Of a DNA stretch of 64,000 bases, positions 37,315-64,000 are shown in pieces. The notes beneath the pieces were generated by a model. That model saw only the letters and a list, made by a program, of their open reading frames with translations, was not told where the DNA came from and searched no databases. Made by a program: the position numbers and the translations under genes. Source of the DNA: Cirrosporium novae-zelandiae (taxonomy: Eukaryota); contig JAPETS010000064.1 in the NCBI GenBank assembly GCA_026023565.1, positions 1 through 64,000 on the forward strand, given 5' to 3'. The first letter of the stretch is position 1; the number at the start of each line of letters is the position of its first letter.

Positions 37315-37871
37315 ATGAATATATCTAAAGAAACGAATAAACCAAACGATTTCAAGAAATCTAATAGGGCTTTGAATGAACAATTTCGCAAACGCCGAAA
37401 TAACTTTTTAAAGAAGGCAAACGATATCGCAAGAATTTCAGATGCCAAGGTCTATGTGATCATTGAAAAGAAAGGTCGATTAATAATTTACAACTCTGAA
37501 GACCCATCATCATGGCCACCAAAAGAAAATGATCTTGTGAGTTTTTTTTTTGGCTCAGAGATTAAGAATCTTTCACTAATTGTATCAAGAGACGATATTA
37601 TCCTTTGCCAGTTCGCAAGAGCCCTGCAGATTTTAATCTTAAGTCGCTCTCGAAAATTAAAATTCGAAGTCCCCCGGTTCCAGGTTGTTTTTCTTCACCT
37701 AAGTCACCATCTATAGTAAGCGATGATGGAACATCTACTGAGAAGGCCCTGTTTCCTTTGATCAAAGTAGAGAGTCCACCGATGATGGTCATGGAACACT
37801 CTTCAACCAAAAATCGAACTCAAGGTCCAGAAGATACACCAGAAGGAACAGACAGTTGTATTTGGACATAG
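37315..37871 (+). CDS. MADS-box (SRF-type) domain protein, 1 intron
   Basis: QFRKRRNNFLKKANDIARISDAKVYVII matches the MADS core F.KR..GL.KKA.EL...C.A.V..II; followed by WPP; divergent from FRE. Confidence 0.75.
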
Positions 37872-38699
37872 TTTGGTTTTTATATAGTTTTTTTGCTTGC
37901 TTTCTTCTTTAGACAACATGAAAGAAACAGCACACGCAAATAATCGAATTTCTGGTCTTATGAGCCCCTTATTTTTTTATTTCCCAATTTTTTAAGTACC
38001 ATTCAAGCCTACAAGGTCTTTCATAGCATCTAGATTAATCTTTATCCATCAGTCCGCGACTCTCAAATAGCTTAACTGGTGCTTCAGACACGAATATCCA
38101 ATGTAGCGCGACCTTCCCACCATTACTATCGGGGATAGATATCAAAGAATAACATTGATTACTCTGACAATCTTAGATATACAATATCGAACACCCTTTG
38201 TACGAAAGAAATGTAAATCTTCATTCTCATTATCAAGATGGAAATTGTATTTTACGTGACTCTTGTATCCTTTTTCTTTACTGAACCTCCAAACCCACGA
38301 CATTCAACCTGTCTATATCTGAAAATACCAAATGAACTGGATGCCACAGATCTTTGAGAGACTAAAATGTGGGAAATAACTAAAAACTAATTTCTACTAT
38401 TAATTATTAGGGCCCTACAAAATATTAAAACTCAATTCCTGGACACCCTCAAGTAACGTGGCCCTCCAACTCTGGGGCCCCTCAAATAACGATGCTGATA
38501 ACCAATTTCTAGACCATTTCAATTAGTAGTGCCCTCCAAATAAGCGTGCCCTCCAAATAAGCATGCTGGCCTTCGAGTTGTGCTGGCCCTCCAATTATGC
38601 CGATTAGCTGTTAAAGATTTTCCCGATTGAACCTGCGCATTTGGAATATTATAAAAATCAAGATTATCAATATGAGGATCCATTATCAAACCAACTACC

Positions 38700-39929
38700 A
38701 TGGCTCCTAACAACTTCCCAGAGAAGAAATTGAAACCAGAAATTCACAAAGCACGAGAAAAAACAATCAAACGAAAAGAGGAACACAACGCTCGTAAAAA
38801 GAGAATCGAGGAAAATTTACGCAATGCTTCGAGCGACGAAGAACGGCAGAAGCTTGAACAGGAGAAGAAAAACCTGGAGGAGGATACGATGGAGCTGGAC
38901 AATAATGAGGAATTGCCTGGAGAGCCTGAACATGATCAAACGGATAAAGGTGACGTGATCACCGAAGAAATTGTTTCACCACCTGTGCCAGAGATAGCTA
39001 TTACGGATGCCGAGAACGGAACCGCCTCATTGCCACTAGATATTGACGAGAATGACGATCATGACCCAGAGACTTTACTCACTCCAGGAGCATTTCGGAA
39101 ACGTCTAGGATTGGATCATGGCGGATACGTTGTGGCCAAAAGGGAGATTGGACGGAGAGTGCAGTTGCTTCTGGAATACGGTCCACCAAACGCCTCCATG
39201 TTTAGGTTTAAGGGTGCTGCAGACGTCGACACTACTTACGATGAAGAGAAAATTCCTGATATTACCGACCCAGAGAACAGAAGGGGACATCTGAGAGTAC
39301 GAAAAAAGTGGACATACACCAGTAAAGACGTTGCAGCTATTCAAGGGGTTGTGTGGATATTTAATGAGGAGTCTGGAAAAGAACCTCTAGATCTATTGGA
39401 TCCCGACATGATGGCCGAGGACAAAATGCACAATCCAGGGACAAAATATCCACATACCTACGTTAAAATTAAGTGGACCGACGGGGAAAAGACTTGGGAA
39501 CCTCGAGCCAATTTCGTACGAGTCTGGGGAAAATCGAAAAAGGCAGCCGATAAAGCGATTTTCATGGCAGCGGAGTACCAAGAAAAGAGATATAAAGAAT
39601 ACTGTAATAATCAACGCCCACCAGAAGACCGATCTCCAACACCAAATCCAGATATTCTGAGAGTGAAACGAGAAGACTCGGTCGACGGGCTTCCGGAAGA
39701 ACAAAGGAGCAAAAAAGGGACAAAAACCGGAACTCAAGCTCCCGATGAATCTAGTAGTGGAGAGGAAATTTCTGAACCTATACCCAAGCTTCATGATGTG
39801 ACGTTATTCAGAACAAACTGGTGCAAAGTGAAACACAAAGATCCTGAAAATCTTTCCGATCTTGATGAAGCAACCGTGTTAGCAACATGGGAGCTTGCCC
39901 AGCAAATATCGGCTACATTGAAGGTTTAA
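38700..39929 (+). CDS. Hypothetical charged protein with a chromo-like segment
   Basis: 409-aa intronless ORF; N-terminal coiled coil; YVKIKWTDGEKTWEPRAN resembles the chromodomain Y.VKW..TWEP motif. Confidence 0.65.
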   Translation: MAPNNFPEKKLKPEIHKAREKTIKRKEEHNARKKRIEENLRNASSDEERQKLEQEKKNLEEDTMELDNNEELPGEPEHDQTDKGDVITEEIVSPPVPEIAITDAENGTASLPLDIDENDDHDPETLLTPGAFRKRLGLDHGGYVVAKREIGRRVQLLLEYGPPNASMFRFKGAADVDTTYDEEKIPDITDPENRRGHLRVRKKWTYTSKDVAAIQGVVWIFNEESGKEPLDLLDPDMMAEDKMHNPGTKYPHTYVKIKWTDGEKTWEPRANFVRVWGKSKKAADKAIFMAAEYQEKRYKEYCNNQRPPEDRSPTPNPDILRVKREDSVDGLPEEQRSKKGTKTGTQAPDESSSGEEISEPIPKLHDVTLFRTNWCKVKHKDPENLSDLDEATVLATWELAQQISATLKV

Positions 39930-40090
39930 AGATTGATCGAGACTATTTCAGCGAATTTCATTGAATATGTTTTGCACTGTTGCACGTACTTTTTCCAAAT
40001 GAGTTTTTTTTTATTTCTAGTGTTTGATAGCCGCCACTCAATGTTAAAAAATATTAGTCTAGGTGAAAAGCATAAATTTGTCTATCTCTT

Positions 40091-40207
40091 TTTGTTATTT
40101 TGTGTAAAGATAATAAATTAAAACTATGAAAATTATCCTAATTATACTATCTAGTCTTGGCACGGAATCTTCCGGAACATCATTGCAACCCCTGTAGAAA
40201 ACCACAT
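40091..40207 (+). repeat. ~115-bp non-coding element, copy 1
   Basis: TTTG(T/C)TATTTTGTGTAA...TACTATCTAGTCTTGGCACGGAATCTTCCGGAACATCATT aligns with 43315-43428 (-) and 47293-47409 (+). Confidence 0.85.
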
Positions 40208-40629
40208 TCTGAAGCCGTATTATAGATCACCAAGAAGATCTAATCTGATACGGAAAAAAACACCATGCTTAGTCAGAAGCTGGAACCCGATCCGGATCAT
40301 CCTGACCACAGCGCAAGGTAGTTAGTCACAGGTTTAGACTAGACTATCCCTTGTTATATGAGGCTAAGAGCCTTGTACAACCATAGTAACATAATTAATC
40401 AGCCACTACGATCATAATAAAACTAAAAGATTATGCATAAGGTTATGAATTGGATGACTTAAAGATATAAGGTCATATTAGCACCATTGAAAAGCTGTAT
40501 ACATCTAGAGGGTTGTGAAAAAACTTAATAGAATAAATCAATCAATCAATATTTTTCTAAAAGCTAGTTCTAGCCTTATTCCTAATTCATGATACCTTCA
40601 TTTACTTGCCAATTATCAAGCTCACCGAG

Positions 40630-41147
40630 CTAGATAGGCCTTCCCCGCGGTCTATCTCGTTTCTCAAAGTCTTCAATTAACTCTGGAGAATTCTTGAAAT
40701 GACTTGCTGGCATCCATTTCGATTCAACTAGGGAATACTGCTGGACAAGGTATTGCTGAATTATTTTTCCTTCAACTCTTTTCTCTCTCTTATCTACAAT
40801 TTCGGCAATCCATTCATTATCATCGAAAAATCCTCCATCGCTGATATCCTGTCAATATTAAGTGTTATAAGAAAAGCCTATACCAGAAGAATCTAGCACA
40901 CTCACCGGAACCGGTTCACCCTCTGAGCTGGTATTATCCATCTGACTATCCAATATGAAATCTGCCAATGAGGATTCCGGACTTTCACAATCTTTTTGCA
41001 TATAAGCTATCTGGAATGAAAGATGACGAAACATCCGAACTCACATTCTCCGGATGGTTCTTGAGAATTGCCCTTGCACATTTCTGGGGGGAGCAAATAT
41101 GGAGAATCGCCGAGAACTACGTGCGTGTCTTTGATATTTGAATTCAT
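40630..41147 (-). CDS. Small chromodomain-like protein A with C-terminal AT-hook-like RPRGRP
   Basis: Last exon 40848-40630 reads DISDGGFFDDNEWIAEIVDKREKRVEGKIIQQYLVQQYSLVESKWMPASHFKNSPELIEDFEKRDRPRGRPI*. Middle exon has ESPESSLADFILD. First exon is tentative because it needs a 38-nt intron. Confidence 0.7.
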
Positions 41148-41703
41148 TCAGTACGATTGGATGTGTGGCGACTGAAGAGGGGAAAGGGGGACATTCGTTA
41201 ATAGTAATTAGTGACAAGTAAGATCTGCTGGCAAGCCTGGTCTTAAAAGTAGAAAAATGATTCACCAAGCATAGAAACAATGCGATAATCTGTGTATCGA
41301 CGAATATTACAGACATGATTCGGGTCTACTATTTTTAGGGTAGGCAGATGACAACAAGTATTAACCAAGGATAGAGGGTTCTGGAACGATATTTCTCAAT
41401 AATTTACTAAGCACAATATTCCTGGTGACTTAAAAGTTAACCAAGCATAAGCATGGTAGAATAGATAGAAAGCTACCTCATTCATAGGGTAAAAAGATAT
41501 TTCACGGTTCTAGATTAGGCCCATCGAATTGTAAAGATTTTTGTAACTTCACCAAGCACTATAGTTTTGACAAGGATGCAACAGTCGTTAGCCGGTATTG
41601 GCCAAGTATAAGGCTCCAACATTCACGAGACCTTTCACAGTTCAGAGCACCAATCCTTGCTGGTTCCCTTGAACAATGGTTCGAGCTGAAAGAGACCAGA
41701 AAT

Positions 41704-42054
41704 CAGTGTTGGCAATAGACTAGACCAAATAGACGGTCTACCATAGACGGTCTATAGACCTTAGACCGACCAGACGAAGCTTTTAGATAGACCAGACCGA
41801 CAAGACCGAGCTTTTTGATAGACCGACCAGACCTTAATTGTCCAAGGTCTATTCGGTCTATATAAATACGAATTATAAGGTGGGGGGTATATTTTTGTAT
41901 TATGAAGTTTGTTAGGGCATCGGAGCTCGGTATTTTATTTTATCTTATCTCCACGTGATATCACGTGGAGATAAGATAGTATGGTGAATCGAGATTCAAA
42001 ATTTCTGTCCACGCTCCGCGCGGATTATATTATCCGGGTGTCATGCCAACACTG
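41704..42054. mobile_element. Non-autonomous hAT-like element (MITE), 351 bp
   Basis: 11-bp TIR CAGTGTTGGCA / TGCCAACACTG; perfect 8-bp TSD CCAGAAAT at 41696-41703 and 42055-42062; subterminal AGAC(C) repeats. Confidence 0.92.
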
Positions 42055-42244
42055 CCAGAAATCAATTGTTACTTGGAATCAAAAAAATTGAAATGATATT
42101 AATAGTGTGATGAACAGTCTATATGAAGGAGTGGGGTTGAAATTAAAGAAATCCTCATTGCCATAATCAATGATCCCAGCAACTCTTCCTAGATGCAAAA
42201 GCTTATCCTGCATTCAACTAGCTTAGAGCCCGCAATTTTTGTTA

Positions 42245-42833
42245 CTACCATTCGCTATTTCGTGGCCAGAGCTGACGCTTTTGAGACCTTCCTCGCAGGC
42301 TACTCCGCCTTTCGAAATCTTCAATCAACTCTTGAGCATTATTTAGTTGACTTGCCGGCATCCAAGTATTTTCCCACACAACTAGGTATTCCTGGATCAC
42401 TGCTTCTCTCGCCCTAACATTCCTTTTGTCAATGATTTTTGAAATCGGCCATTCGTCTGCGGTAGATTTTTCTTGATTGTTCTGACACAGTTAGCATCAT
42501 CGAATACGACTGAAATATAAAACTCACTGTTAGTAGTCCAGTTTCGTCTATAGAACTTTCTCCTTCGTCATCGAGCATAAAATCCGATATATCGGATTGC
42601 GGGCTTTCGTCTATTTGTGTAGACGGGCTACCTTTGATCAATGTAAGCAATAGGTTGAATAAAACCGTAACTCATCAACACTAACTTTGGTTACTTGATT
42701 CCTCGGCTTCCAGAAAAGTATGGGCACGGATTCTCTGTTGGCGTTCTCTGATTGGAGCGGTTGAAGATTCAGAGTAGATACTGTCGAGTTTTTGCACGGA
42801 TGCACCAATAGTATCATGATTTTGGGATGTCAT
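42245..42833 (-). CDS. Small chromodomain protein B (162 aa, 3 exons)
   Basis: Exons 42833-42686, 42631-42528 and 42481-42245 splice in frame at GT-AG sites. Last exon: DEWPISKIIDKRNVRAREAVIQEYLVVWENTWMPASQLNNAQELIEDFERR. Confidence 0.82.
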
Positions 42834-43314
42834 AATGTTTGATGGAACATACAAAATAATAATAATGTTGTTAGATGATCAATGAAGACCAAGAAAAGAC
42901 ATCAGTATATATTTGATATGTGAGGGACTCCGAATCGTTTAACTTCATTATTGAATCCACCAAGCACACCGATCCTTTTCCGAAAGAGGTTGTAAATATT
43001 CACCAAGCACAAGGGTAAAGGGTCTGACGGGCCCCTCAAATTCGCTTAGCCAGTCGAAAAGACTTGTCAATGTTCCATAAGCTATCCCCGGCTTTATCGT
43101 ACAGCGACAACGAAGGCCTCTATTTGTATAAGCTAACTTAATGAAGGAAATAGAAGTATACTTTTCAGATAACCAAAATTGAAAAGCTGGACGATTATCG
43201 ATTAGTACGCGGAGCGGATATCGGAATCCGCTCATTAGGAGAAAGCGCCACAGCTTCCTTTCAAGGCTAAGCTATCCGCTTAGCGACCAGATAACGAGTA
43301 GCAGCAAAAACTAC

Positions 43315-43428
43315 AGCTGTGAACAGGGATATAAAATAATATTCCGGAAGATTCCGTGCCAAGATTAGATAGTATAGCTAGCATATTTTTCACAGGTTCA
43401 TTTCTATATCCTTATACAAAATAACAGA
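43315..43428 (-). repeat. ~115-bp non-coding element, copy 2 (inverted)
   Basis: TTCCGGAAGATTCCGTGCCAAGATTAGATAGTATA...CAAAATAACA is the reverse complement of copy 1 with substitutions. Confidence 0.85.
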
Positions 43429-45574
43429 ACTTCTTCTTCAGGAGAAGCTTTCATCTCAGACGACACTATAGCCAATATTATGGTTTCTACCCTGCACCCT
43501 CACAGCACTAACATTAGTTTGGTCAATCCAAGGTAAGTCAATAATACAGTATGTCATAGTGTCAACTGACTCTCATATAAAAAATTACAATATAATACAG
43601 GCTAACTGATCGGGATCGAGAACGAACATGGTTTTTGATATTTGTATACCATGCCTGGTCGGGGTCTAAGTCTATACTTTATGAGTCCTGGTTTGAAGGT
43701 AGGAACCAAAAATCACATTGGTGGGAAAATAATTTGGAACTCACTTGTCGACAGACCCCTCCTAACTTGGAAAAATGCAGACTTCACATGAACCTGCCTT
43801 TCAGCTAAGCTACCACCCTCTTCCTCGATGATCCAGTCCTCATATCAACTCCGGTCACGCCAAAATAGTACATCACCGAATATTGTTTCTGCCAATATTC
43901 AGCTCTCTCGAACATACTTCAGGCTCTATCATTTCTGTATCCACCGTGTTCTTGATTTTTGTTCTTGTCATCGTGGCTTCTCCTGAATGTATTTTCAACT
44001 CCATAGGTGAAAAGACAAACAACTTGAATTTATTTCATACGATATTAGAATTCTGCGATTATAACCTTTTCCATACACCATCTTTTTTTTCATAATTCAA
44101 CTCCTTTCCAGTCGAATGCGAGCTTTCTGTTCCATGGTAGCTAGACAGAATAGCGAATCCATGAAAGGCTATCGATTGAATAGATACCTGTCTATTGACA
44201 TGGCCCTCCAAATTTATTATTCGTGGATACATTAAAACTAACTCCCCCTATACAGTCTCTATCCTAGTTATATCGCCTATTCAAACATACAGTTGTTGAG
44301 TATGTTCAAACAAGTTATCGTCAGCCTAGGTATTACTCCCCAAAAATATACAGTTGAACACACCTATATTGAACAACATCACGTCTATGATCCGATTTCC
44401 AACGCTATGTCCCGAAACCTTAGGGTTTCTGCAGGAAGAATCAGTGGATAGGTCTCTACCTTTTCAGCGAATGATGATAGGAGCAATGGTGCAAACCAAC
44501 AAATCGGTGCCATTCCTCTATCATCAGATGACTAAATTTGATATGAAAATGGAACCATACGATAACTGCTGTATGGAATACTGATACACCGGTTGATCAT
44601 AGTGAACTACTAATTAGTACTAATTCTATTGAACAGTCTCATCGATTCTAACGGAATGTAATGACTTAAAGATTTTAGGATTAGTTTTGCCATCCTCTGA
44701 AGCCTACCCACCAGCTCCACCATTTTACGACAAAATGAGGATTTTGAATAGATTCAAGAAGCCTGACAGAGGGGTCCCAGAAATAAGGTAGGTATATTTC
44801 TGAGAGACAGAACTCTACACATCATGGACACCTGGTCCAGACCTTAAATGTATCCTAGAATTCCCTATTTGGAAATCCAAACATGCATTTTCAACTGCCT
44901 CTCCGGTGACTTCCAACATCCTCTGTTCATTTATCCATTTGGCCAGTCCCTCCCGCTGCTCTGACACAGCGAAAGTAGGTTTAGCATTCTCATGTCCGGT
45001 TGCACTGCCCTGTTGTCTATATTTGCGATACGACATTAGACCTGACATGCATCTTGTGGCACAATATGCAGTTCAATAAGAGCTATAGTATATCAATTAG
45101 CGAATCAATCAGAACATACAGTCCCTCTACTCATCCACCCAAACGACTCCTCTCTCTAAATGCATCGATCTGGCTGTGACAAATATTTAGTTCATAACAC
45201 GTTGTGTCCTAATCACGCATTGCCAACATTGCCATTCCTCGGATCGAGATCTCATACCAGGCTTAGACCCATGTATAGTCTGATAAAATGATGGTTGTGA
45301 TTGAAGCGGCCTCAATACTGGTCCTGCTCGAGCTGGCGTGAAAGCCTTATATGCATCAGAAGGTATTGAGACACGAAGAATTGTCGGCGACGGCCGTGTC
45401 AGACTTCGGGAAATGAGGCCATGTCTCTACCTTGGCCCAGGGACATCCAAATATATAAAGGGCAGCTTTTCCTTCCAAACTGATTGTTGCTCTACTTTCA
45501 CTCCATTCGGTTTCCGCTTTTTCTCCAATCCTATATATTCATACTTCATTCCAATTATTCAAACATCATCTATC

Positions 45575-46513
45575 ATGCAGTCTTCACGCCCTTCCACCTC
45601 CAGTTGGTGTCCTCTTGACATTCTGTGCATCGATCCTGAAGGAGATGCTAGTTGTGTCGGCATAGCCTGCTCCAAAAATCGAAAATGCAAAGTTGTTGTT
45701 GCCAAAGCGACCCGAACCAAGGCTCAGAAGCTTCTTGATGAAATTGCTCAGCTTCCAGCCAACGCAGAAGAAGTCCGGCAGAAGCTTATTGACCTTGCAC
45801 ACTATCTTCTTTGTAAACGCTTCCACCAGAACCAGGCGGATGAGATGATGGAAAAATGGTGGTCGAAAATTCAGCAATCAACGGAACTGTCTCCACAGAA
45901 TCTTACGCCTCCACCAAGTCCCCGAGTATCAGGACGACATAACACACCCTCGATTCGATCCAACCGTACCCGGCTAACATCGAGGAATACCAATGTGCAG
46001 TCAGCTGCAACTATTTCTTCTGCGCCTTCCCGAGGACCAGCTGCAGTCTCGACACCTCCACCCAGTCCTCGTCCGACCGTGGGCCGACGCAATTCCAGTC
46101 CAAGACAAAACAACCAACAGTCAGACAATGATGATAATGATGATGATGAATCAGTTTTATCACTCACGCAAGAGCATCACGATTCCGTTTTGATTTCATC
46201 ATCTATCCCAAATAATGTCCGCTCTTCGCCTCATGAAACCAATGGAATTGATTTAACCGACTGCTGTACGATTTGTCAGGAATCCTTGCAAGGACACTGG
46301 GGAGCTTATTATGTATGCAATCAGTGTTCTAAAGCACTTCATTCCGGATGTTATCAACGTCTAAGAGGATCTCGTCGGGATATTCCTCCATGTCCGAGTT
46401 GGTAAGTTTTTTCTTTCCAGATTTTGTGAATGCAATAGTTACTAATTTTCGGTTGTAGTCGCTCTAGAGAAGGGTTCGAATGCTATTCACGCCTTCGGAA
46501 CAGAAGGTCTTGA
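45575..46513 (+). CDS. RING-variant (C4HC3) zinc-finger protein with N-terminal Cys/His domain, 1 intron
   Basis: CTIC..CNQC..LHSGC..CPSCR after splicing; N-terminal CVG..RKC..LLCKRFHQ; Pro/Ser-rich linker. Confidence 0.75.
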
Positions 46514-47292
46514 TTGATACGCCATGTTCTTGTCAAAATGTTGATACAAAGTCAGGATTTTATAGTAGACGAGGACTTAGTATGTAAAAGGACTTCAGTG
46601 TTGGAACTATAGTCATCATTAGTTTTATTTATTGGGTTGATGTCAGTTCTGGAGAATTAGGGCACCGTTTTTTATAATAAATTTTTTTCCTCTCCAGTCC
46701 ACGTTTTATCTATGGGTTACATATCTCACCAAGTTATAATTTTTGATGTCTATAAGCAATACTATGACGTATATTTTATCTGGTCTATCATGCTCGAAGG
46801 CGCCAAATCAGACCGTCAAGTGCTCTCGATTTCGCTTTCTATGATCTCAAGAGTTTGCGATGAGCTAATAAGTCGAATATTCTATTCCTAGCACACGCCA
46901 TAAGGAATGAAATGGACATAAGGGCAGAAATTGACCCAAGTCAGAAAATTGACCTGGGGACTTAACTAACTTGAGTCAATTCTCGAACATAGGTCAAGAG
47001 CTTGACTTACGGCCGAGAATTGACGTGAGGAACGGATTGACTTGAGGAATAGGTTGACTTGAGTGATAGCACTCCCAAACAGAGTACCATCAGTTGTAGG
47101 GCGGGGTCCTACTGTGATGCCCCCCCATTGAATAGTAGTCACCAGTTCATGATGGTGGTATTGTTCTGATATTGTCCCATTTCTGTTTAGATTCGTATAA
47201 TAGGGTTTAATTATAATAGAGGCTAAAAATAATATGCAATATATTCCAGTAACTGAATCATGGTAGACATACTGAAGGTGATACGGGCCTTG

Positions 47293-47409
47293 TTTGCTAT
47301 TTTGTGTAAGGATTGTGAATTTGAATTTATGAAAAATATACTATCTACACTATCTAGTCTTGGCACAGAATACTCCGGAACATCATTATATTCTTACCAA
47401 CAGCCACAT
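47293..47409 (+). repeat. ~115-bp non-coding element, copy 3
   Basis: TTTGCTATTTTGTGTAAG...ACTATCTAGTCTTGGCACAGAATACTCCGGAACATCATT. Confidence 0.85.
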
Positions 47410-47963
47410 CGTATTCAGTGATGGCTCAAAACCAGGATCGGATAGCGTAAGCAGTACACTGCAGACCGTAATGCGAATGCGAGTATCTTTAGCATTATTT
47501 ATATATGACCGTATAAAGTGGTAGGAAAACGTCTGAAAATTTTTTTAGTTAGTGTAAGAATCGTGCGTTAGAATTGTTGATTCTTTTACTTCTCTGGTTA
47601 CCATTAAGAGGTAACCGTCTACGGTTAAGCACTAAGCGCTTGTAATTAAGCGTTAACCGCCTATAGTTAAGCCTTAAGCGCCAGTTGGTTATGGTTTTGA
47701 CCTTATGGCTCTGACAATTAGGATTACTAGATTTAGAACAATTGACACTACCAATTTAATGCCAAGCCAAAAAAATCACAAAACTAAGATTAAGTATTGA
47801 GTTTTAAATTTAATGTCAGCTTTTACCTTAGTTATTTAGTAGTGGGATAACCAATTTCTGATTAATCTTAATTCTATTGGCCAATGATTCTAGAATCCCG
47901 GCCGGTGAATTAAATTCTTAATGTTTTAAATACGTCTTAATAATAATATTTTTTATACAAGAC

Positions 47964-48106
47964 TGTTACGGATGCCAAGCCACATACACGTGACATCAGT
48001 GACCTGGTCACATGACACACTGTATATAGATCCCTGAGCCTTGCACGTTAGATTCTAGACGATAAGTTATATAATCCACACAAAGTTACCCCTAGGAGTC
48101 GTAACA
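47964..48106. mobile_element. Solo LTR (143 bp)
   Basis: TGTTACG...CGTAACA termini; flanks AAGAC/AAAAC (5-bp TSD with one G>A change); first 25 bp identical to 58756-58780. Confidence 0.8.
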
Positions 48107-48976
48107 AAAACTTGTGTGCAGCTTAGAAAAATTGTTAGAACTAGAACTGGATGGTTTAAAACTTAATCGTTGATAGTTAGCGCTTGGCAGTAACAATTAA
48201 AGCAACTGGGGAAACTCAAAAACCCCCCAGCATTAACAGATGACTCTTACAAAAATCCAATGCATAGGAACAGAAATATCAATATATTCTTTGATTTTAT
48301 TTACACCAATTCCAGAGTTTCTTCCGGTATGCCTTGCGTTTGATTACAAATATACTGATAATGTAGGGATTTGATCATAGTAAAAACGGCAATTTGAAGC
48401 TATAGAGTTAGCCAATCGATCATACAAGTGGGACAAAAGGATCATACCGTTGCTAGATACGCCCATAAAAAATCAAAAAAAAAACTCAAAGTGGCAATTA
48501 TCAGGCCGATAAGAGACAGGAACGCTGTCATGGTTGTAGCCATCCATAACACCCGCTGATGCCAGAGCTGCGGTACCCTGGACTGGAAGATGAAATTTCT
48601 CAAATAAAGTATGAAATCAATTAGACGGGGAGATCTGATCTCATGATAGGATTCGTGAGATATCTGGATTTCTTGTCGGATGCAGGTCGAAATCACCCAG
48701 AGGCGGTAGCACATTCCAGACCAGATAAACCCTTGAACAACATTCACGGTAAGTAACCCGGAGTTAATAAAATAACGCGTTGAATGAGAGAGGTGATCGT
48801 CAAAAAACCTACTAGCATAAATGAGTGCTCTATAAATGCAAGGTAATGCTTACAATAACAATAAAGTTATTTTAAGCCCAGAAAAAAATATAATGGCTAT
48901 AGCTATCAGACGAGGAGCTTGACTCCAAAACATAAGATACTAATGATAATTAGCACAGATTGTCAAATGACAGTGT

Positions 48977-49333
48977 TCACGATTTCACCTCATGCAGAAA
49001 CAGTACCACCAATAAGCAACCAAGATTAAAATGGAGAATCGGCCTGGATGAATCTATTCCATGTGTGATTAGTGACGTCGCAGTATCCCATAATGATTTA
49101 ATACCTTGTTTGAAGACTGGAGCGAGCACAGTCAGAAACAGCAAACTTATAGTTCCTGCAATCATTGCTATACCTAGGACCACTTGACAGAGGAAGAGTG
49201 GTTTTCGAGATAGTGATATAATTTCTGAAAGCTCTCTCTTGGTTCTATAAGTCAACCAAATCCAGAAACTGCAAATGGCACCGTATAGTGCTGCTGCTGA
49301 AACCATCAACTGAAAGATTTTGGAATTATCCAT
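48977..49333 (-). CDS. Possible small membrane protein (may continue into 48442-48747)
   Basis: ATG-initiated 118-aa ORF with about three hydrophobic segments; no recognisable family. Confidence 0.3.
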   Translation of the reverse strand: MDNSKIFQLMVSAAALYGAICSFWIWLTYRTKRELSEIISLSRKPLFLCQVVLGIAMIAGTISLLFLTVLAPVFKQGIKSLWDTATSLITHGIDSSRPILHFNLGCLLVVLFLHEVKS

Positions 49334-51113
49334 TGAGTAAGTTCACAAGATCCACAAAGAAATAATATCAGTATCGCAGCGCAGTCATGACATACATCCA
49401 ATATATGCATGCTGACCAGGTCACAGCCACCTTACAGGTATTCTACAAAGCTAGACCGTGCATAGAACAGTCCCACACTAATTTTCAGCTCACTGCTAGT
49501 ACAAGAATACCTCAATAGGTGGATAATTTTCTCCTTTGCTGCTGGATTCTCATTCATCTCCATTCGCTTTTTGCAGTCTAAACATCGTTCTTTTGACTAT
49601 CCATGGCTCTGATAAACAGGGTCATAGGTTTCTTAGGGGTAAATTTTATACCGAAAGGAGAGATAGCACTTGAAGTGATTTGATAAAAAAATTTGGACAT
49701 TTTTGGCATCTCTAAGGAATGTCGCTTCTTCTGTTCAAGCTTCCAATGACTACAAGGGCTGGGAGAACTCAAAGGTTCATGGGATCACATGTAGTAGGAA
49801 TGGTGGACTGTTCTCTGCATCCATCCTAAGTTTATCCTGGTAGTAAAGAGAATGTCCTTGTGATGTTGAGATGAGCTGCGTATGCGAATAGATCCTTAAT
49901 GGAGACTGTCATGTTAACTGAGCTGAATGAATGACTTGTCTCGAATGTGCTCAGGAATGGAACTGTTGGATTTTGAGGTCTCATCCAGGCAGTGCATCTC
50001 AATCAGCCCTTCTATTTCGCATGAAAAGGTCCACCAAATCATCAAATCATTTCAAGGTGGATACCAAACCTGCAGTGTTGAAGGCCCCTTTTCCCATCAA
50101 CCAACCATCTGGCCGAACCGCATAGCAGATGATTCAATAAATATCAGTGCCGGTTTGATATTCCACAAATTACTTTCGATGCAGAAAGGTGTTATTAGCG
50201 TTATAATCCAGAAATATTTTAGTACAACCATCATGACTGTGATGAAGTATTGGGTTATCGGACCTTATCCTGACTGAATTACGGGAGGAAAGGGGGCTCT
50301 GCTTAAGCCGTCTCATATCGATGATCGAATTCTACGCCAGCTAGATCTAGAATGAAAGAACACGAAAAAAAAGATAAAGTGAGAACGATTGACTGGTTCA
50401 TCTATCACCCGATCACACCTATTTTGTGGCAATATTTGTCAAAAAAAATAGGCAAGCTTTCGGTTGTACGGAAGTTGCCTCATATTCAGCAGCAATTAGG
50501 CATCGAATTCATTCTTATCCCCCTTCATATTAACATATAGTCACTCTCTCATAATCTATTGGCCCAAAGCACAAGGAAACGGCTACGCGGCCACGTAGGC
50601 CTGAGAACGCTTTCTGGAATACTCCCAGATAGCACCTCTCTCTACTATTGCTTTTTTAGTTATAAAAGATGCCCTAAGCTCTAGCAATGGTGCAAAAGCC
50701 AAGATCTACAGGAACCTCTTAATATCTAGTAGTAAACACGAGAGGTATTTTCTATAAAAACAATAATAGACAATGAATTAAAATATAGGGCGCTATTTAG
50801 TGTTCTATCAGTTGTAATATATTTTATAGCACTTACGAATATTGGGTTTATCTTTCCAGGATCGCTTCAGCCATTATACCATTTAAACAGAAAATATAAG
50901 AGCAATCAACCCGCGTGGTTGATTACCTCTAGTCACTAGATATATACCAAATAAATTCAACTAGCCTCATACAGCTAGATCAAAGCAACGGAAGCCCCAA
51001 GGTCTTGACAAATCTATACTATTTCTATAGGGATAAAACATAGATAGAATAGCAAGAAAAAGATAATTAATAAATTCTAATCACAGTCACGGCATCACCA
51101 GCAGTACTATTAG

Positions 51114-53580
51114 TTATAATACCTTCTTTCCTTGAATTGTTGGTCGATCTTGCACTAACACCTTAGTTAAAAAAGGAGGTAGGCGACGAACTCGTAAATG
51201 CAAATCATATTTGTGTACAATTGCGATATGGTTGAGGAGAGCAACGACATTCTCAAAAGGTTCGAGCTGTTTACAACAAGAGCAGGGACATGGAGCACAG
51301 TCCTCATGAGAAAGAGGCTGGAGATGTAGGTTCACCAAATGGCGCCTAAGTGAGTCTATACGTTGTTTTTTGGGGGGGTGCAAGCCACCGAGGCTCTTCT
51401 CGCTATAGCAGAAAATGCATCGATCCATAGGAACTTCGAGGGTATCAGGATTTGGCGTTTCATTGCTTGCATTCTCGTCGATATTGGTCCAATCGAACTT
51501 TTTAACTCGACTACAAGGTTCTCGCAGTTGACAAAAGCGGACTAGATTTTGAATAGTCTTGATTCTCTGCATCAGGTCCTGGTTGCCAGTCATGGACTCG
51601 GCCTGGGACCCAAAAAAAGCGTCTTCAATTTGAGCTTGTTCGGGAAACAGGTACTGAGGGACCGGAGGTTTCCATGGATCATCCTCATAATCTGAGACAT
51701 CCTCATTGGAAGCCAGTTCAAGCATTTGATCAATTTGCTTATCAATTTCAATGACCGGCATGGTTTGATAGTAATCTTTCTTTGCTTTGGCCTCTTCTTC
51801 TCGGTGGTATGCATTTCTCACTTTTTTGATCTCTTTGTCTATTTCAGCATGACGACGGTATTGGTCAGTGTCCGTTGCATTCCGTACGAAATTCCGCATT
51901 GATCTCATCTCTTTAAAGAGTTTCTGTTTTTCCTTATGGAGTTGGGCGAGATAAGGTTTCTGTGTAATAGCCTTGCGCTGTTCTTCCGAAAGGCCCTTTG
52001 GTGCTAACGGATCCCGATTCCTATTCATCTGGGCGACAGCCCGGTACAAGGAATCTTGGGTAGGCCGTAGAAGGACAACACTCTGCACATCACGGCTGAT
52101 AAAGTGATCCTGGTAGTGCTTCTCGAAAATCTTAGTTCCCGATTGACCCAAAATTCGGTTTCGTTCTTGGTCCGTGAAAGCCCCTACGTCATAATAGAAA
52201 TTAATACCAAATCATACGATATAATAAACAAAAATTACACAATGACAAAATGACTTACGATTGGCTTCATTCGCCACCCAACGCCGAAAATTATAGTGAT
52301 GAATAGGATACTCGTAGCCAGCATCGACCCCTAACTGTTTGATTGCTGAATTGCTAGTGTTATATTTCATTGGTTGAATTGGGTGGACATCAATACCATA
52401 GGGCGTCTTATCGATGTGTCGCAAAAGGGGAACATTCCGCATCTCATCTTTCCACGGAATGGGCAAAGAATGTAACCGTTTCGGAACCTTTAGTCGTAGT
52501 ATCACTTCTGGTGTCATACGGCGATTTTGAAATGCATGATCGGCATGTGCAAGCGAAAGGAGAAACATGATAGGACAATACACTAGCTGATAATCTTGAT
52601 GCATCAAAAATTTGGTCCTGGGCACTCGGAATATGAGCATGGAATTCAGCGCAAAAGCTCTAGGGGGAAGGCAAAACTGACCCATCTGCGCCTTGTTCTG
52701 AACCTTTTAGGTTTCTGAAATCAATTAATGCAGCGACAATATCACGACCCCCAGACGGATTTCGAATAACAAAAAGTTCGATATCCCGGTAACAAATCGT
52801 GTGAGGCAACTGGTCCAGCCGAATGAAGTCAGGCATGCGGCTATTTAGAGATGTTCTTGGTGTGGGCTCCGTGGAAGGGAGCAACACACCCGGCCGTGTT
52901 CCTGTAAACGCGGAAAAAAGCATGATCAAAGTAATTTGAATCAAATGTCGCCCATTCGGGATGGGTTTCCCATATACCCAGAGTTGATGTAAAAGAATGC
53001 CGAGGTCTTCAGAACTCAAAATGTCTTTCCGCCTTTTGCGGACGCTCACATGATGTTCAGCTCGCAAGCCTTGATTAATGTACTACCAGAACTGTTCAGC
53101 AAGGAAATTCAATCAGAAATAAAAATGAAAATAAGGGACGACAAACCCGTCTTACTTGCACACGGACATCTTCATGCATCCGACGATGAGCAAAAAGAGA
53201 GTAGTATTCACATAATCGTCTCCAGTACATATCAAGCGTTTCTTTCCCTTTCCGCTTCGATGTACGAGCTATCCAGTCCAGGAAATTCATATAGACAGTC
53301 GCTTCCTCTTTCATCAAATATTCGATGTCATCTACCTGCAAATGATTGCAATGCCTAATAGATAATGTTAAATGTGTATCGGGGATCAAGAACCAAACAG
53401 CCTTACTTACTTTTGCCAGTACTTCTCTACAACTTTGATGCCTTTGATAGTAGATTCCTTGTAAGTTGGAGGTAGCCATCCTTTCTGTTTGAACTTCTCT
53501 AGCATCGAATATGTTTCCTCACGGGATATAGGGTCGGTCCAATGCCGACTGCCAGGTGTGCACGAAGCCAGCACAGTCAT
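51114..53580 (-). CDS. DUF3435 tyrosine recombinase (Starship captain), about 5 exons
   Basis: Start MTVLASCTPG at 53580, intron 53410-53355. YR-type motifs FTGTRPG (R), NLKG (K), CPI..LL.LA.AD.AF, YNFRR, RNRILGQ, FEKHY (Y), RDPLAP; C-terminal CIFC..LRRH..H and CPC..C..H..H fingers. Confidence 0.92.
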
Positions 53581-54036
53581 GGAGAATCAAACAAATGTGT
53601 TTTCACAAGACAGAGATGCGGAAAATAGTAAATGAGCATTAGAAATGCTCCGGAAATATAGATCGACGAAAAGTGTATTCGAGTTTGCCAAACAAGATAT
53701 GAGATAAAAAAGTAAGATTTTATTATTATCAAAAGAAAACAAGAAATTTAGTATTAAAAGACTAATACGAGAGAATACCATGGCCAAAATGAGAAATAAT
53801 ATAAAGCGTGGTTGGTGAATTAATGGAGCTAAGGTTGAAAAATGAAGGGTCTACCTTTTCGTGAGGGTATTCCGTTTCAAACATGCCATGTAAGAAAGTT
53901 ACCAGGGATATACCAAGGAATTAAAGCGGCGATAAGTCAAGTTAAAAGGGTATTGGTATGTGTGGGAAAGCCTTAAAAAACGGCGGCACAACCATCCATT
54001 TTCGAAGGTTAATTCACAAACACATAGATTCATATC

Positions 54037-55026
54037 GTAAATTATCGGGTATATCGATATTTATATTTTATTAAATAATAATTTTCGGTTTTTTATTTTT
54101 TATATATTATAAACTGGAGTTTTATTTTAATTAAAATAATATTTTTTTTAATATAAATCCGGTTTATATCCGTTTTTAATAATATTTTTCCGACGTTATT
54201 TATACGATTATCGTATTTCGGAATAATAAAAGAAATTTCATATTTTTATTTAATATAAAATTTTGAATAAATATATATTTATTATTATATTATTTATTTT
54301 TATTATAATTTTTAAAATTTTTTATTTATATTTAAATAATAATATATTTGTATTAATTTTTTTATTAAATATAATTTTTAAATTTTTTTTTTTTTAATAT
54401 AAATTTTTTATATACGTAATTTAATATTAATCGCCGTTATTGTTAATATTATAAAACCCGAATATTTAATTTTTTTTTTATTAAAAATTAATATTTTTTA
54501 ATTTTTAAATTTTATAATCCTGTTTACCGAACGAGTATATTTTTATTTTCGGTATTTAATTATTTATTATTTTATTATTTTTATATAAATATTCTCCGTA
54601 ATTTTCGGCGTCGGTTTTATAAAAATTTATTTCGGAATTTTTGGTATTAATAATAAGGTTTCTCATTTAATTATATTTATTATTTATTAAAAAATTTTGT
54701 ATATTTTTTTTTCATTTATATTATTATTATAATTTTTTTTAATTTTTTTTTAAATTTTTATAATTTTGTCGTTTCGTTTTTTTAAAATAAAGATTATAAT
54801 ATTTAATCGTTTATTTTTATTATAAAATTTTATTTCGGTTCGTTTAATTTATTTTTTAGGCGCTGTCGCTTTTTCGTACCCGTCTGGTTCTCGCTGACGG
54901 CACGCACGTTTATAGCCCCCGATTCTTTCCGGCTATTATTGAGCTTTATAGGTCCTAGATAGGTGTTAAATATTTAGTATAATGGTCGTCACAGTGGTGA
55001 ATTGATTTGGTGGCCTAGGGTCACCA
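54037..55026 (-). mobile_element. RIPed repeat family copy A, truncated at the Starship junction
   Basis: GC-richer terminus GGTGACCCTAGGCCACCAAATCAATTCAC shared with copies B and C; aligns to copy B up to TTAC at 54037. Confidence 0.8.
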
Positions 55027-56627
55027 AAAGTCCTTTTTACCTTTTTTTTTATTTCTCTATTTATCTATTTAAAAACAAGAAGCTATAGATAATCTACGTT
55101 TCGTATATATATTGTGAAAGAGTTACCAGCTTTTGGCTGTTTAAAGCACCGAATAAGGGCAAACCTTTATTCGGAAAACTCTAGGTAAACAAGAACAGGG
55201 GACAATATATCGGAATCTCGGAATTAGTTCTTTATCTATTTCCGTATTAATCCTGGATCTAGAATACAATTATCTATTTATATAAATAATTATATATTTC
55301 AATAAATATATATAAATAATAGATTTTTTTATTTTTTTTATTTTTTAATCTTATTTAATTGATTTATTTATTTAGATCTTATATACGATACCGTTCATAT
55401 AACTGCCCCAGGCCCCTTATATTCTATACCCACAGCTCTATCTAAATACTCAATCCTAGCACTGTTTCACAATATAATAAGAGAATATTATTTATTGTAT
55501 AAAAATAAATAGATTTTTTCGATCCGATATAATTAACTATAATATTCCAAAATTAAATATTCTATAATCGTATATAATTTTGATTAAATTAATTATACTC
55601 GTCTCTATTATATAAAAAATATATTTAAATATTTTAGACTATCGATCCACGATAATTAATATATTATTATAAATTTTTTTTTATATTTCGTAAATAATAA
55701 TCTAATAATAAAATTTATATTTGTTGTAAATAATAGTCTAGGAGGTCCACTTAATAATAGAGGGGCTATATATATACCGCATACATGTCTTAGATGCCCA
55801 GCTTAAGCCTAAAACTGATTTACTAATAAGTTAATAAATCTATATTATAAAAAAAAATATCTATATTTAATAATTTTTAATAAAAATATATAATTATTTA
55901 ATACGCACCCTTTTTTTCCCCGGATTATCTAATAGAACTAATATTTTAAAATAAATTATAAAGCCCGATTAATATTAAAATATAAATATTATAATTAAAA
56001 CGTAAAACGTATTTATTACGTAAATTATACGTATTAAATACGGATATATTACGTAATAACAATTTATTATAATTTTTAAAACGTTTATATAATCGGAAAT
56101 AATAGACATTTATATAAAATTAGATTTATAATTACTTTTTATATATAAAATATTTGAAATATAATTATATTCCGGGAATTATTTCTTTAAAACGTTTATA
56201 TAATATAAATCGATAATTTTCGATATTTATTAATCGATTTTTTTTTTATTTTACAATAATTAATTTTTTAATTAATTTTTTAAACGATATTAATAAATTA
56301 ATTATATAATTAGAATATATATAAATCGTTAACGATCCGTATTTTATAATAAATAATATTTAAGTTATACGTAAATTAATCGAAATCTTTATGTATAATA
56401 ATTATAATCAATAATTTAAATTAATTAAATATTATATTGAAACGAAAAAATTGTATTAAATAGTATTATTTATAATAAATATAATTTTAAAATTATATAA
56501 AAAAAATAATATAATAATATAATTGATATTAAAAAAATATATAAATAATATAAATTAAAAACGAATAATAAAATACGTTTTTATTAAAAAATTATAAAAA
56601 AATTTTAAAGTAAAGAAAAAAGTCTTG

Positions 56628-58750
56628 TGGGGACCCCGGGCCACCAAAGCAATTCATTATTATGACGATCGTCATATGAAATATTTAATATTTACTTAAG
56701 GCCTATAAAACCCAGCAGCAGCGGGGAAAATTATAAATTATAAAGATTTATACCGTCAGCGAAAATCAGACGGATACGAAAGGGCGACAGCGTCTAAGAA
56801 ACGAATCAAACGAACCGGAATAAAATTTTATAATAAAATCAAACGATTTAATACTATAATTTTTATTTTAAAAAAAAATCAAATAAAAAAATATTATTAA
56901 AATATTTTACGAAAAAATAAATTAATATTCGGGATATTTTAATTAAATAAAGGATTAAATATATTAAATTTTGAAAACCGACGATTTTATAATATAATTA
57001 CGGAAAATACTTTTCGTTTTTAAAACCCGAATAATTATTTTAAAAAAACGAAACGACAAAATTATAAAAATATAAAATAATTAAAAAAAATTATATATTA
57101 TTAAATATAAATTTCTAATAATTAAAAAAAAATTATAATAACGATTTAAATATTATAAATCCGGATAAAAATCGTAAAAACCGTTTATAATAGAATAAAA
57201 AATTCTATAAATAAATATTATATAATCCCGATTATTAAATTCGAACAAATAATAAAAAAAAATATATAATATTTTTTTTAATAATATTCTAAACGGGAAT
57301 AATAATCGGATCGTAAATATCGAATACGCGGATAATAGTATAAACGAATAAAAAATTCTATCGTTAATACCGAAAATTCCGAAATAAATTTTTATAAAAC
57401 TGATATTAAAATTTATTAAGATTATTTATATAAAAATAATCAATAAAATAAAAAATAATAAATAATTAAATCCCGAAAATAAAAACGTATTCGTTCCGTA
57501 AATAGAGATATAAAATCTAAAAATTAAAAAATATTGATGTTTAATAAAAAAAAACCGAATATTTAGATTTTATAATATTAATAATAACGGCGATTAATAA
57601 TAAATTAATTAATTTAAATATATTATTTGAATTACGGATACAGGAAATTTATATTAATAAAAAAAATGATTTAAAAATTATAATAAAAATAAATAATATA
57701 ATAATAAATATATATTTCTTAAAAATTTTATATTAAATAAAAATATAAATAATATTTCTAAAAATATTTAAAAATTTAAATAAATTAAATTTAATAAAAA
57801 AAAAATTTAAAAAAAAAATATTTATTATACCGAAATACAATAATCGTATAAATAGCGCCAAAAAAAATACAGTTAAAAATAAAATTCCCGTTTATAATAT
57901 ATAAAAAATAAAGAATTATTATTTAATAAAATATAAATTTAAATGTATTTAATAATTTATATTAAAAATAAATAAAACGTATTTAAAATATATTTAATTA
58001 AAATATAAAAATAGATTTTTTAAATATACGATATATACGGAAATATACGAAACGTAAAATTACTAATATCGGATAATAAAATATAGATCTGCGCGTACGG
58101 GGGTTTATATATATATTCTATTAAAATATATAAATTATTTAGATTTTTATATAATTATTAACAGACAATATTTAACGATCCAAAAAATAAAAATAGAATA
58201 TACGAAAAAAAAATATCGAAAAAACGTTATATAATTATTTTATATATTTATATTTTTTTAAAAAAAAAATCTATAAAATTTTAATTAAAAATCAAAAACC
58301 CCCGAACTAATTTAAAAAAAAACAAAAAAAAAATATAAATGATATCTGAAATATTAATTATATCGAAAATATTAATAATATTTATATCGTAAATAAATAA
58401 TGATATATCTGAATTATAAATAAAAATATTATAATATAATTATTATAAAAAATACGATACAACGATTACAAATTTAGAATTAGTTATATAGATTAAAACG
58501 AATATAATATTATTATAAAAATTTAATCAAAAATTAAAAAAAAAATATTATATTTAATATAGGATTTTTATTGGCCCGAATTAGGAATTTAAAAGAGAAA
58601 TAAAATCGTAAAAACGGTCACTGCTATACGTAAAAATCGATTTAATTAATTATTTTTAATAAAAATAAAATAATATTAATAACAAATTTTAACATTTATA
58701 ATTTAATATGAAAATCCGAACGAATTATTTATATAAATAATATATTTTTA
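56628..58750 (+). mobile_element. RIPed repeat family copy B (possibly LINE 5' region)
   Basis: Starts TGGGGACCCCGGGCCACCAAA; ~190-bp head is the reverse complement of 54835-55026 and 62653-62842; internal segments match copies A and C. Confidence 0.75.
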
Positions 58751-58755
58751 ATAAC

Positions 58756-61249: not shown

Positions 61250-62842
61250 AATAAATCGATTTTTTTTTAAGTTAAATATTTTAAACGGTATTATTTTATA
61301 TAATTAAATTCTATTTTTTTATAAACGTTATTAAAAACGCGCCGTTCATATAAATAATCTATTCGGGTTTTTTATATTAGATTATAAATATTAAAATTTT
61401 TTATTAATATTATTTTATTTTTATTTTATATTTTATAAAATTTTTTTAGATTTTTATTATCGGTTTTATTTTTAAAAATATATATTTTTTAATTTTTGAT
61501 CGTAAATATTAATTATTTTAATCGGGTTTTTTATTTTTTTATTTATATTTATTTTATTGATATTTAACGTTATAAAATAAAAATAATTAATTAAATCGGT
61601 TTTTACGATTATTTTAAATATAATATTTTTTCGATTTTTATATATAATAATAACCGTTTTTACGATTTTATTTTTTATTTAAATTTTTAATTCGGATTAA
61701 TAAAAATCTTACGCCGAATATAATATTTTTTTTTTTAATTTTTAATTAAATTTTTATAATAATATTATATCTATTCCGATTTATATAATCGATTTTAAAA
61801 TTATAATTATTATATCGTATTTTTTATAATAATTATATTATAATATTTTTATTTATAATTCGGATATATCGTTATTTATTTACGATATAGGTATTATCGA
61901 TATTTTTAATATTATCGATATTTTTAATATTATCGATATTTCGGATATTATATATTTTTTTTTTTTTTTTTTTTCTAGATTTCTAATACGGGGGTTTTTA
62001 ATTTTTAATTAAAATTTTATAGATTTTTTTTTTTTAAAAAAATTAATACGTAAAATAACTATATAATATTTTTTTAATATTTTTTTTTTATATATTCTAT
62101 TTTTATTTTTCGTGTTATTAGGTATTTTCCGTCCGTGATTATATAAAGGCCTAGATAGTTTGTATATTTTAACGGGATATATATAACCCCCGTTTATAGA
62201 ATTTTTTATTCCGTTTTACGTAGTTTCTATAATTTTTACCTGGATCTATAATATTTAGATTATTATTATAACTGTTTTTTTAATTATTAGAAATTTTTAT
62301 TTAATTATATATAATTCTTTTTAATTTATTTTCTAAATTTTTATAATTTTATTGTCTCGTTTTTCTAAAACGATTATTTAGATTTTTAAATCAAAAAATA
62401 TTTCCCGTAATTATATTATAAAATCGTCGGTTTTTAAAATCTAGTATATTTTCTCCCCGATTACGGGAAATATACGTATTATTATATATTTAATTATTTA
62501 TTCTATTAAAATATTCTGGTTATTAATCTATTTTTTTTTAAGATTTTTTTTTTTATAAAACTTTTCGACGACGTTTTTCCGGCTGATTATTTTTTTTCTA
62601 GAATAAGGATCATAGTACCGAATCGCTAGATTTTATTATAAGTTTTTACCCTGGTTCGTTCGATTCATTTTTTAGGCGCTGTCGCCCTTTCGTGTCCGTC
62701 TAGTTGTCGCTGACGGCACGTATTCTTTTAATCCCCGATTTTTCCCCGCTGCTGCTGGGCTCTATAGGCCTTAAATAAATATTAAATATTTCGTATAACG
62801 GTCGTCACAATAGTGAATTGATTTGGTGGCACGGGGTCACCA
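61250..62842 (-). mobile_element. RIPed repeat family copy C
   Basis: Head TGGTGACCCCGTGCCACCAAATCAATTCAC; 62161-62195 matches 58096-58132 in reverse complement. Confidence 0.72.
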
Positions 62843-64000
62843 AAAAAAAATTGCCAACTATTAAACCCGAATAAATATAATAACCATTATATATATATAT
62901 ATATATATTCGTATATATATTTAAATATTAATAATTATTAGTAATACCGTCAAATTAATTCTATTATTTTATTATATTTTAAATAATTTATTTATATAAT
63001 TTTTTTTCGAATAACGGTATCGTGAGAAATATACGCCCCGTCGTTATATCGTATTAGATTCGTATCGTTTATATTTAATTTATTTTTTAGAATTTTTTTT
63101 TGGAATTATTTATTTGGAAATAATTTCTAAATTTTATTTCTATATTAAGCGTCCCCGTTCTGCAAAAATATAAAATAATTAATAAACATATCTAATATAT
63201 TATTATTATAAAGTGATATTTTTCCGCGTATTTCTCGTATATATTTACGTACGGATTACGTAATTAATTATTTTATAAATTTTGAAATATTTATTTCTAT
63301 TTTTTTATTATATTTAAATATATCGTTTATATTATTTATAATTTTTATAATAAATTTAAATAAATTATTATTTATATTTTTTATTTTAATATTTTTAATA
63401 TTTTTAATATTTAATTTTTTAATTTTAATTTTTTTAAGTTTTCGGTTTTTTATTATAATTACGGTAATCATTTTTTTTTTTTATTTAATTATCGGTATTT
63501 TTTATATATTATTTATAATTTTTTTTTTGTTTTAATTTTTATTATAAAATTCAAAATAATTATTCGTTTTTTAATTTTTTAATATTATATTCCGGTTTTC
63601 GAAATAATTTATTTATTAAATTCAATTTTTTTTATAGAAAAATAATTTCGAAATTATAAATAATAAAATTTTTAATTTAATATATTTATCGTTTATTTAA
63701 TTTTTTTATTATTGTAAAATAATATAAATTTTTATGATTATTTAATATTTATATTATATATAACGTTTTTTTAAAATAATATTTTTATTTTTTAAAAATT
63801 TCTATAATTATTATTAATTCTATATTATAAATATTATAATTTAATTCCGCGGTAATTAATTTCTAATATTAGAATATATTCGGATATTATTTATTTCCTA
63901 TATTTCTTTTATATAAAATAAATAATTAAAATAAAATAATTATAATTATAAATGCCGAAAATTTTTTTTTAAATATATAATTATAGATTAAAATATCGTA

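Follow-up and report, generated by a model that had tools for sequence, protein, structure and literature searches.

Starships, the Hephaestus family, the target TTAC(N7)A, and the insertion of Starships into AT-rich remnants of transposons are all in print already. In the accessible portions of the accounts of Starships and Hephaestus, short direct repeats and terminal inverted repeats are described, and the Hephaestus family is assigned a direct-repeat core of TTAC and the target TTAC(N7)A. A 2026 preprint on the circular intermediate gives, in its available part, a 40-nt sequence for the Hephaestus circle junction, with the recombination point TT//AC. According to the available text of PMC10104507, tyrosines Y381 and Y416 of HhpA are necessary for Hephaestus transposition. 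The Nebuchadnezzar elements are Hephaestus-family Starships of Aspergillus fumigatus, with a predicted target of TTACA(N5)AAT in the published Table 1; the covered part of the supplement to PMC12153272 lists for them the direct repeat ttaca and the terminal inverted repeat gaggacctgtgaa. Starships of the Prometheus and Phoenix families are found mostly in AT-rich sequence and often inside transposons, a preference that is not, in the text covered, a trait of the Hephaestus family. DUF3723, FRE, PLP, and NLR genes are named as auxiliary gene families of Starships in the accessible sections of PMC11162782. A full-text search of open-access papers and bioRxiv preprints found no paper that reports a Starship in Cirrosporium or the Xylobotryomycetes.

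Here, we describe a window of 64,000 nt (the whole stretch of DNA that was analyzed) in which a junction, an intact captain gene, a conserved terminus, a cut repeat copy, and a sharp switch in base composition lie together. We propose that positions 1-54036/54040 hold the part next to the captain, 54 kb or more in length, of a Starship of the Hephaestus kind that was inserted at a TTAC within a repeat decayed by RIP. We place the probability of this reading at roughly 0.78. The captain, its terminal sequence, and the junction are as follows.

51114..53580, minus strand: captain gene, a DUF3435 tyrosine recombinase of 732 aa in five exons (Pfam; identical database protein P0001)
53580-53410, 53353-53156, 53082-52681, 52616-52257, and 52181-51117, minus strand: captain exons, with stop codon TAA
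53958..54036, minus strand: conserved 5' terminal sequence with GAAT, TGTGAA, and CGAAAA blocks (profile match and likeness to Hephaestus)
54037..54040, minus strand: 5' (captain-side) junction TTAC, the last bases in common with repeat copy B (TTAT there) and the start of the conserved terminal sequence

The captain was recognized through DUF3435 matches in Pfam on three adjacent open reading frame (ORF) pieces within 51117-53082 on the minus strand (E values of 2.7e-37, 3.5e-35, and 1.7e-12). When spliced, it is identical to P0001, which NCBI files as a hypothetical protein on a contig of 104,663 nt and whose source label is a metagenome-assembled genome (MAG) of Cirrosporium novae-zelandiae. 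The five-exon map of P0001 includes four introns of 56-75 nt. Thus, the apparent in-frame stop and frame change in this gene are due to introns rather than to damage. The ATG lies 457 nt in from the edge of the element, and transcription is directed away from the junction, into the element. The sole ORF between captain and junction encodes 87 aa and had no Pfam match.

Next to Hephaestus of Paecilomyces variotii, the captain is alike over the full length: it is identical to HhpA (P0053) at 311 of 727 positions (43%). P0053 is named HhpA by UniRef and belongs to a 90% cluster represented by P0012, and in a search of 5.8 billion proteins this cluster was among the best matches (646 bits, against 666 for the top match). 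The two tyrosines tested in HhpA, Y381 and Y416, are kept as Y365 and Y400 in the window, and both are invariant in an alignment of 15 sequences. Altogether, 49 proteins matched the captain at an E value of 1e-20 or less, the best of them 40-45% identical over about 96% of the length. The best relatives come nearly all from Penicillium, Aspergillus, Talaromyces, and Paecilomyces, and the captain P0025 of A. fumigatus Af293 is 40% identical to that of the window. Six locus tags of captain matches occurred in no paper found and in none of the covered parts of the NAR and mBio supplements.

A tree placed the captain apart from HhpA. In a quick maximum-likelihood tree of 39 proteins, rooted at the midpoint and built without captains of other Starship families, the window captain sits on a long branch. 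It groups with two captains from a MAG of Vezdaea aestivalis (SH-aLRT of 100), outside a clade of 36 sequences from the Eurotiales that holds HhpA and the Af293 protein. The host, by its label, belongs to the class Xylobotryomycetes and not to the Eurotiales. On sequence comparison, the level of membership that the data support is therefore worded as "Hephaestus-like."

The edge of the element was examined on the minus strand, where an AT-rich run ending in CCCGATAATTTAC is followed by GATATGAATC, with TTAC at 54040-54037. This TTAC and the captain gene read on the same strand. The arrangement matches Hephaestus, in which the captain is at the 5' end and points inward and the TTAC of the captain-side junction is oriented likewise. 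Composition changes at the same point. GC content is about 41% over 1-54037 and 12-23% from there to 64000, and the 100-nt bins across 54037/54038 read 0.40 and 0.39 and then 0.13 and 0.20; the drop from 0.39 to 0.13 in adjoining bins agrees with the initial annotation, which had seen base composition switch at this TTAC. We found RIP-type dinucleotide indices to be normal in all 2-kb bins of 1-54000 and strongly skewed in all bins from 54001. There was no gradient or decay of these indices on the GC-normal side. The RIP of the flank would largely have preceded the single-copy element or have spared it.

Three copies of a repeat in the flank bear on how this edge arose.

54038..55038, plus strand: repeat copy A, RIP-like, with GC of about 0.17, cut at the junction (BLASTN and composition)
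56616..58755, minus strand: repeat copy B, inverted relative to A and unbroken through 57959/57960, used as a proxy for the empty site
61327..62845, plus strand: repeat copy C, which matches B collinearly to either side of the break and lacks B's 57230-58097

Copy B allows the junction to be compared with an unbroken sequence. Both strings on which the initial annotation had based its claim are present as quoted, that of A at 54080..54029 on the minus strand and that of B at 57917..57970 on the plus strand; A and B are mutually inverted, an orientation that the annotation had left out. It had also held that their similarity stops at TTAC/TTAT, and an ungapped comparison and BLASTN both break there. 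The TTAT of B, which is the counterpart of A's TTAC, ends at 57960. When the two copies were anchored and compared without gaps, the 45 positions up to the C/T of TTAC/TTAT contained 36 matches, 7 transitions, and 2 transversions, and the 45 positions after it contained 14 matches, 10 transitions, and 21 transversions. The earliest transversion beyond the junction is 2 nt after TTAC. The excess of transitions over the last 45 aligned positions (7 against 2 transversions), in duplicated copies, is a RIP-type pattern. Together with the skewed indices and with the way copy A ends in the middle of a unit while B runs on, it bears out the view of the flank as a RIPed repeat.

How precisely the crossover can be placed was overstated as "resolved to the base." TTAC is a microhomology common to the target and the element, and the crossover lies somewhere inside its 4 nt. 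The motif itself is informative, since TTAC is rare in the flank: it occurs 31 times in 9,963 positions on the minus strand of the AT-rich flank (0.3%), which makes a break directly after one improbable by chance. The N7-A part carries almost no weight at such an AT content: it follows 18 of the 31 TTACs of the flank.

The TTAC(N7)A consensus given for Hephaestus in the initial annotation agrees with published statements, as far as the accessible text goes. The annotation had held that both the junction and the inferred empty site fit it. The junction reads TTAC-N7-A, as the consensus has it, and here the window resembles Hephaestus, in which TTAC-N7-A likewise holds within the element's own end. 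The corresponding site in copy B reads TTAT-N7-A, which departs from the consensus in its fourth base, and its A is uninformative at this composition. Copy B would fit the target motif only if a RIP-type mutation had turned an original TTAC, followed by A, into TTAT; a C that precedes A is the context favored by RIP. With the same substitution, that is, if TTAT is read as TTAC, copy B would also fit the target predicted for Nebuchadnezzar, and the element end in the window has AAT at the same offset. The window differs from Nebuchadnezzar in the base after TTAC, which is G and not A.

A truncation of copy A offers another account of the same junction. The 5' end of the Starship could be real and copy A could have been truncated earlier or later by a deletion or rearrangement, in which case the far end would not be followed by the remaining part of the repeat and B would be invalid as a proxy for the empty site. 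Only one end of the element is visible, and nests of AT-rich repeats are prone to rearrangement: within 10 kb, 867 nt of B are missing from copy C, and part of B is duplicated locally when compared with A. However, the A/B homology runs through TTA(C/T), exactly where the terminus starts, so that a truncation would have to coincide with this point to within about 2 nt. We consider it improbable.

The alignment of A and B is far longer than 44 nt. With the low-complexity filter off, BLASTN aligned 54038-54683 with 57959-57332 (71% of 680 columns; E value of 2e-96) and extended the similarity further, to 55038 and 56616. Copies B and C match at 79-83% over B 58097-58755 and C 62193-61327 and at 74% over B 56625-57230 and C 62845-62173. 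Thus, B is collinear with C on either side of the break. Copy A shares B's 57332-57959 and then ends 137 nt before the B-C homology resumes, which argues for an interruption inside the repeat unit rather than a natural terminus of the repeat. Because copy C does not have the segment that holds the break, only B spans it, and the argument for an end in mid-unit is weakened to that extent.

These relationships also speak to a reading in which A and B are the inverted arms of a single foldback or long-terminal-inverted-repeat transposon (54038-57959) that the Starship merely adjoins. A and B are indeed inverted, and their outer ends are the exact break points. However, B beyond the break is collinear with C, and C also has the inner arm, so that one repeat unit spans the break. 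The break is, moreover, 137 nt inside the segment 57230-58097, with C-homologous DNA on both sides of it. We regard the foldback arrangement as very unlikely. In the reading that we prefer, the element entered an intact copy A, and the rest of A would follow the far end. Within the window, the 20 nt after B's TTAT matched B alone, and the continuation of B past the break matched only copy C and an 85-nt stretch at 47939-48033.

The repeats gave no Pfam match within copies A, B, and C when translated in six frames through stops. Outside them, an RT_RNaseH match on the minus strand at 63686-63919 was below threshold (E value of 2.6e-4; 21.5 bits, with the cut-off at 24.8), a hint that some of this AT-rich DNA may derive from a decayed LTR retrotransposon. 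A GC-normal islet at 58752-58870 lies inside the RIP-like flank and begins where the B-C homology ends (58755). Some 85 nt of it (81%) recur in the cargo at 47939-48050 (aligned by BLASTN over 47939-48033). The common piece begins TGTTAC and contains a palindrome of the GTCACATGAC type. Another small mobile element or LTR, present in cargo and flank alike, may have its end in these two stretches.

We then compared the sequence inside the junction with that of related loci. Metagenome contigs were scanned with the captain alignment, which gave 17 loci, three pairs of which are apparently one sequence filed twice (by comparison of parts). In four distinct metagenome loci and in the window, TTAC-N7-A occurs 454-499 nt upstream of the captain match and is followed by similar sequence. 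When these loci were aligned, nothing was conserved before TTAC, and about 80-90 nt were conserved after it, with the blocks GAAT, TGTGAA, and CGAAA. Mean pairwise identity was 0.30 over the 36 nt upstream of the first four bases, against 0.69 over the 36 nt downstream. No terminus of the set diverges further than that of the window, which has an identity of 0.53-0.61 to the four model loci over 36 nt. The conserved region, 53958..54036, is likely a captain-binding or terminal-repeat region.

A first profile of this terminus included the window, and it was therefore rebuilt from the four metagenome loci alone. The window-free profile matched 54038-53960 on the minus strand (E value of 1.5e-8), which was the sole significant match in 64 kb on both strands; the next-best match had an E value of 0.12, and the profiles gave no better than 0.12-0.67 at 46796-46841. 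The first profile had also found the terminus, at the corresponding place, in four further distinct loci, none of which had been used to build it.

L001: held-out profile match, E value of 3.5e-17
L009: held-out profile match, E value of 4e-12
L010 (= L011): held-out profile match, E value of 9e-9
L014: held-out profile match, E value of 2e-7, partial

Overall, of the 13 metagenome loci in which 600 nt or more lie upstream of the captain, 11 have the terminal sequence (8 of 10 when only distinct loci are counted), and it starts about 450-550 nt before the captain match; the other four of the 17 have too little upstream DNA for the terminus to be judged. In L002 and L017, the profile search recognized no terminal sequence within 4 kb upstream. 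The captains of these two loci are related (best-segment identities of 37% and 55%) and may lack an intact element end or have a different terminus.

Among the distinct loci, the terminus opens with TTAC in four cases, TCAC in two, and ATAC in one; the AC is constant. At the ATAC and TCAC starts (L001:3509, L009:927, and L010:2030, the last equal to L011:3450), the terminal sequence that follows is conserved. A constant AC behind two variable bases is what a TT//AC exchange would give in these relatives. From the aligned termini, it seems that the target supplies the first two bases and the element supplies the AC.

The conserved blocks also have counterparts in the named elements, as far as these are described in the accessible text. 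The Hephaestus circle junction has GAAT at the same offset as the window. The 5' end of Hephaestus is identical to the window at 9 of the 18 bases after TTAC (compared by eye), and several metagenome loci are much closer to it. The Nebuchadnezzar terminal inverted repeat gaggacctgtgaa, from the covered part of the supplement, ends in TGTGAA, which is kept at the matching place in the window; at this offset, the metagenome loci carry GGACCTGTGAA where the window carries TGTGAA. From the shared terminus and the published Hephaestus end, it follows that the experimentally anchored first bases of the element coincide with the noted junction. The initial annotation had called this junction a Starship end, and the DUF3435 captain, its homology to HhpA, and a conserved terminus that begins at TTAC back it as the captain-side boundary. 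The location in AT-rich sequence is as described for Prometheus and Phoenix elements, but the captain and the terminus of the window instead resemble those of Hephaestus.

The position of the terminus bears on the concern that the junction is an assembly artifact, in which an AT-rich repeat contig was misjoined to the end of an element in a MAG contig. The matching database protein, P0001, is labeled as coming from a MAG. A single sequencing run contains the stretch (share of 0.87), and as it is possibly the source of the assembly, it provides no independent support; two other runs from that study have almost none of its words. However, it would be unexpected for a misjoin to land precisely on the opening base of the conserved terminus, directly behind a TTAC that continues the homology with B. 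We give this account scarcely any credence.

The interior of the Hephaestus-like element was surveyed with Pfam scans.

1..51113, no strand assigned: cargo region, continuing past the left edge of the window (Pfam scans)
561-1732, plus strand: C2H2 zinc finger (Pfam)
3295-5636, plus strand: fungal kinase (Pfam)
7241-8145 and 11755-12637, plus strand: two paralogous genes with Fung_rhodopsin domains (E values of 4e-33 and 4e-34)
8788-9932, minus strand: O-methyltransferase (Pfam)
13186-15643, minus strand: RSN1/PHM7 channel (Pfam)
21180-23616, minus strand: DUF3723 (Pfam, E value of 2.5e-68)
23553-25349, plus strand: patatin-like, a weak match (23.7 bits, under the Pfam cut-off of 27.7)
35817-37162, minus strand: ferric reductase (Pfam)
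42248-42490, minus strand: chromo domain (Pfam)

DUF3723 and the ferric reductase are clear members of the auxiliary families of Starships, and the Pfam scans found no NLR gene in the window. The scans also showed no metal-resistance cargo in the 54 kb in view, in which the element is unlike Hephaestus. No AT-rich block was found within 1-54037. The O-methyltransferase gene, on the minus strand, is flanked by the two Fung_rhodopsin paralogues on the plus strand, and the trio may be a small duplicated cargo module.

Several repeats are present in the cargo. The 14-nt word ATTCACCAAGCACA occurs six times in intergenic cargo, always on the plus strand (6474, 10835, 10866, 35077, 41260, and 42998), and may be a shared regulatory site. 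Three copies of a repeat of about 95 nt, 82-83% alike, are found within 7 kb of cargo, two of them direct (40090-40184 and 47293-47387) and one inverted (43335-43429); the repeat looks like a miniature transposon. A tandem array at 2266-2527, with about five copies of a 54-nt unit, lies inside an ORF on the minus strand (2193-2699) that had no Pfam match.

Searches of the 64-kb window for the far end found no second TTAC boundary. BLASTN-short with the terminal 204 nt gave only 13-nt chance words as candidates for an inverted copy of the terminus, and a repeat search found no inverted repeat pair in the window that is relevant to a far end. The 17-nt terminal word, with up to 3 mismatches, matched itself alone in the window. 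The repeat word of the family, with up to 2 mismatches, gave 10 matches against 10.65 expected and none on the plus strand, as a far end would require. Thus, unless its far end has diverged too much to be recognized by the searches used, the element spans 54 kb or more.

By analogy with Hephaestus, the captain (53580-51114, minus strand) would bind the conserved terminal sequence that starts at TTAC and excise the element as a circle that leaves no footprint. The TTAC at the joined ends of the circle would recombine with a target TTAC, and no target-site duplication would result. With a target inside repeat copy A, itself heavily decayed by C-to-T and G-to-A changes, such an event would give a 5' junction in which the repeat runs up to TTAC and the element follows. 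The element would be, or would have been, mobile.

Starship boundaries are usually called from empty-site genomes. The junction described here is a base-level 5' boundary of a Starship in the Xylobotryomycetes that was obtained without an empty-site genome. A terminal-sequence profile anchored on the captain finds the edge of an element in a single assembly and could help to annotate genomes that are fragmentary or known from single isolates. Whether Starships select decayed repeats or merely survive in them is, in the accessible literature, an open question, and the insertion in a RIP-decayed repeat adds a case to it. The element leaves knowledge of how Starships work unchanged.

A further proposal, which we regard as possible but doubtful, is that the element represents a deep-branching and still intact Hephaestus-like lineage outside the Eurotiomycetes, in which a terminus of about 80 nt was kept as the captains diverged to 43%. 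In the tree, the nearest relatives of the captain come from another lichen-associated MAG (Vezdaea). If this proposal is true, the AC, GAAT, TGTGAA, and CGAAAA blocks would be the minimal cis-acting site that this group of captains reads; their spacing from the crossover is fixed, and they lie about 450-550 nt before the captain gene. They would then provide a testable map of how the recombinase recognizes DNA and of the dependence of the TT on the target, given the ATAC and TCAC starts of the relatives.
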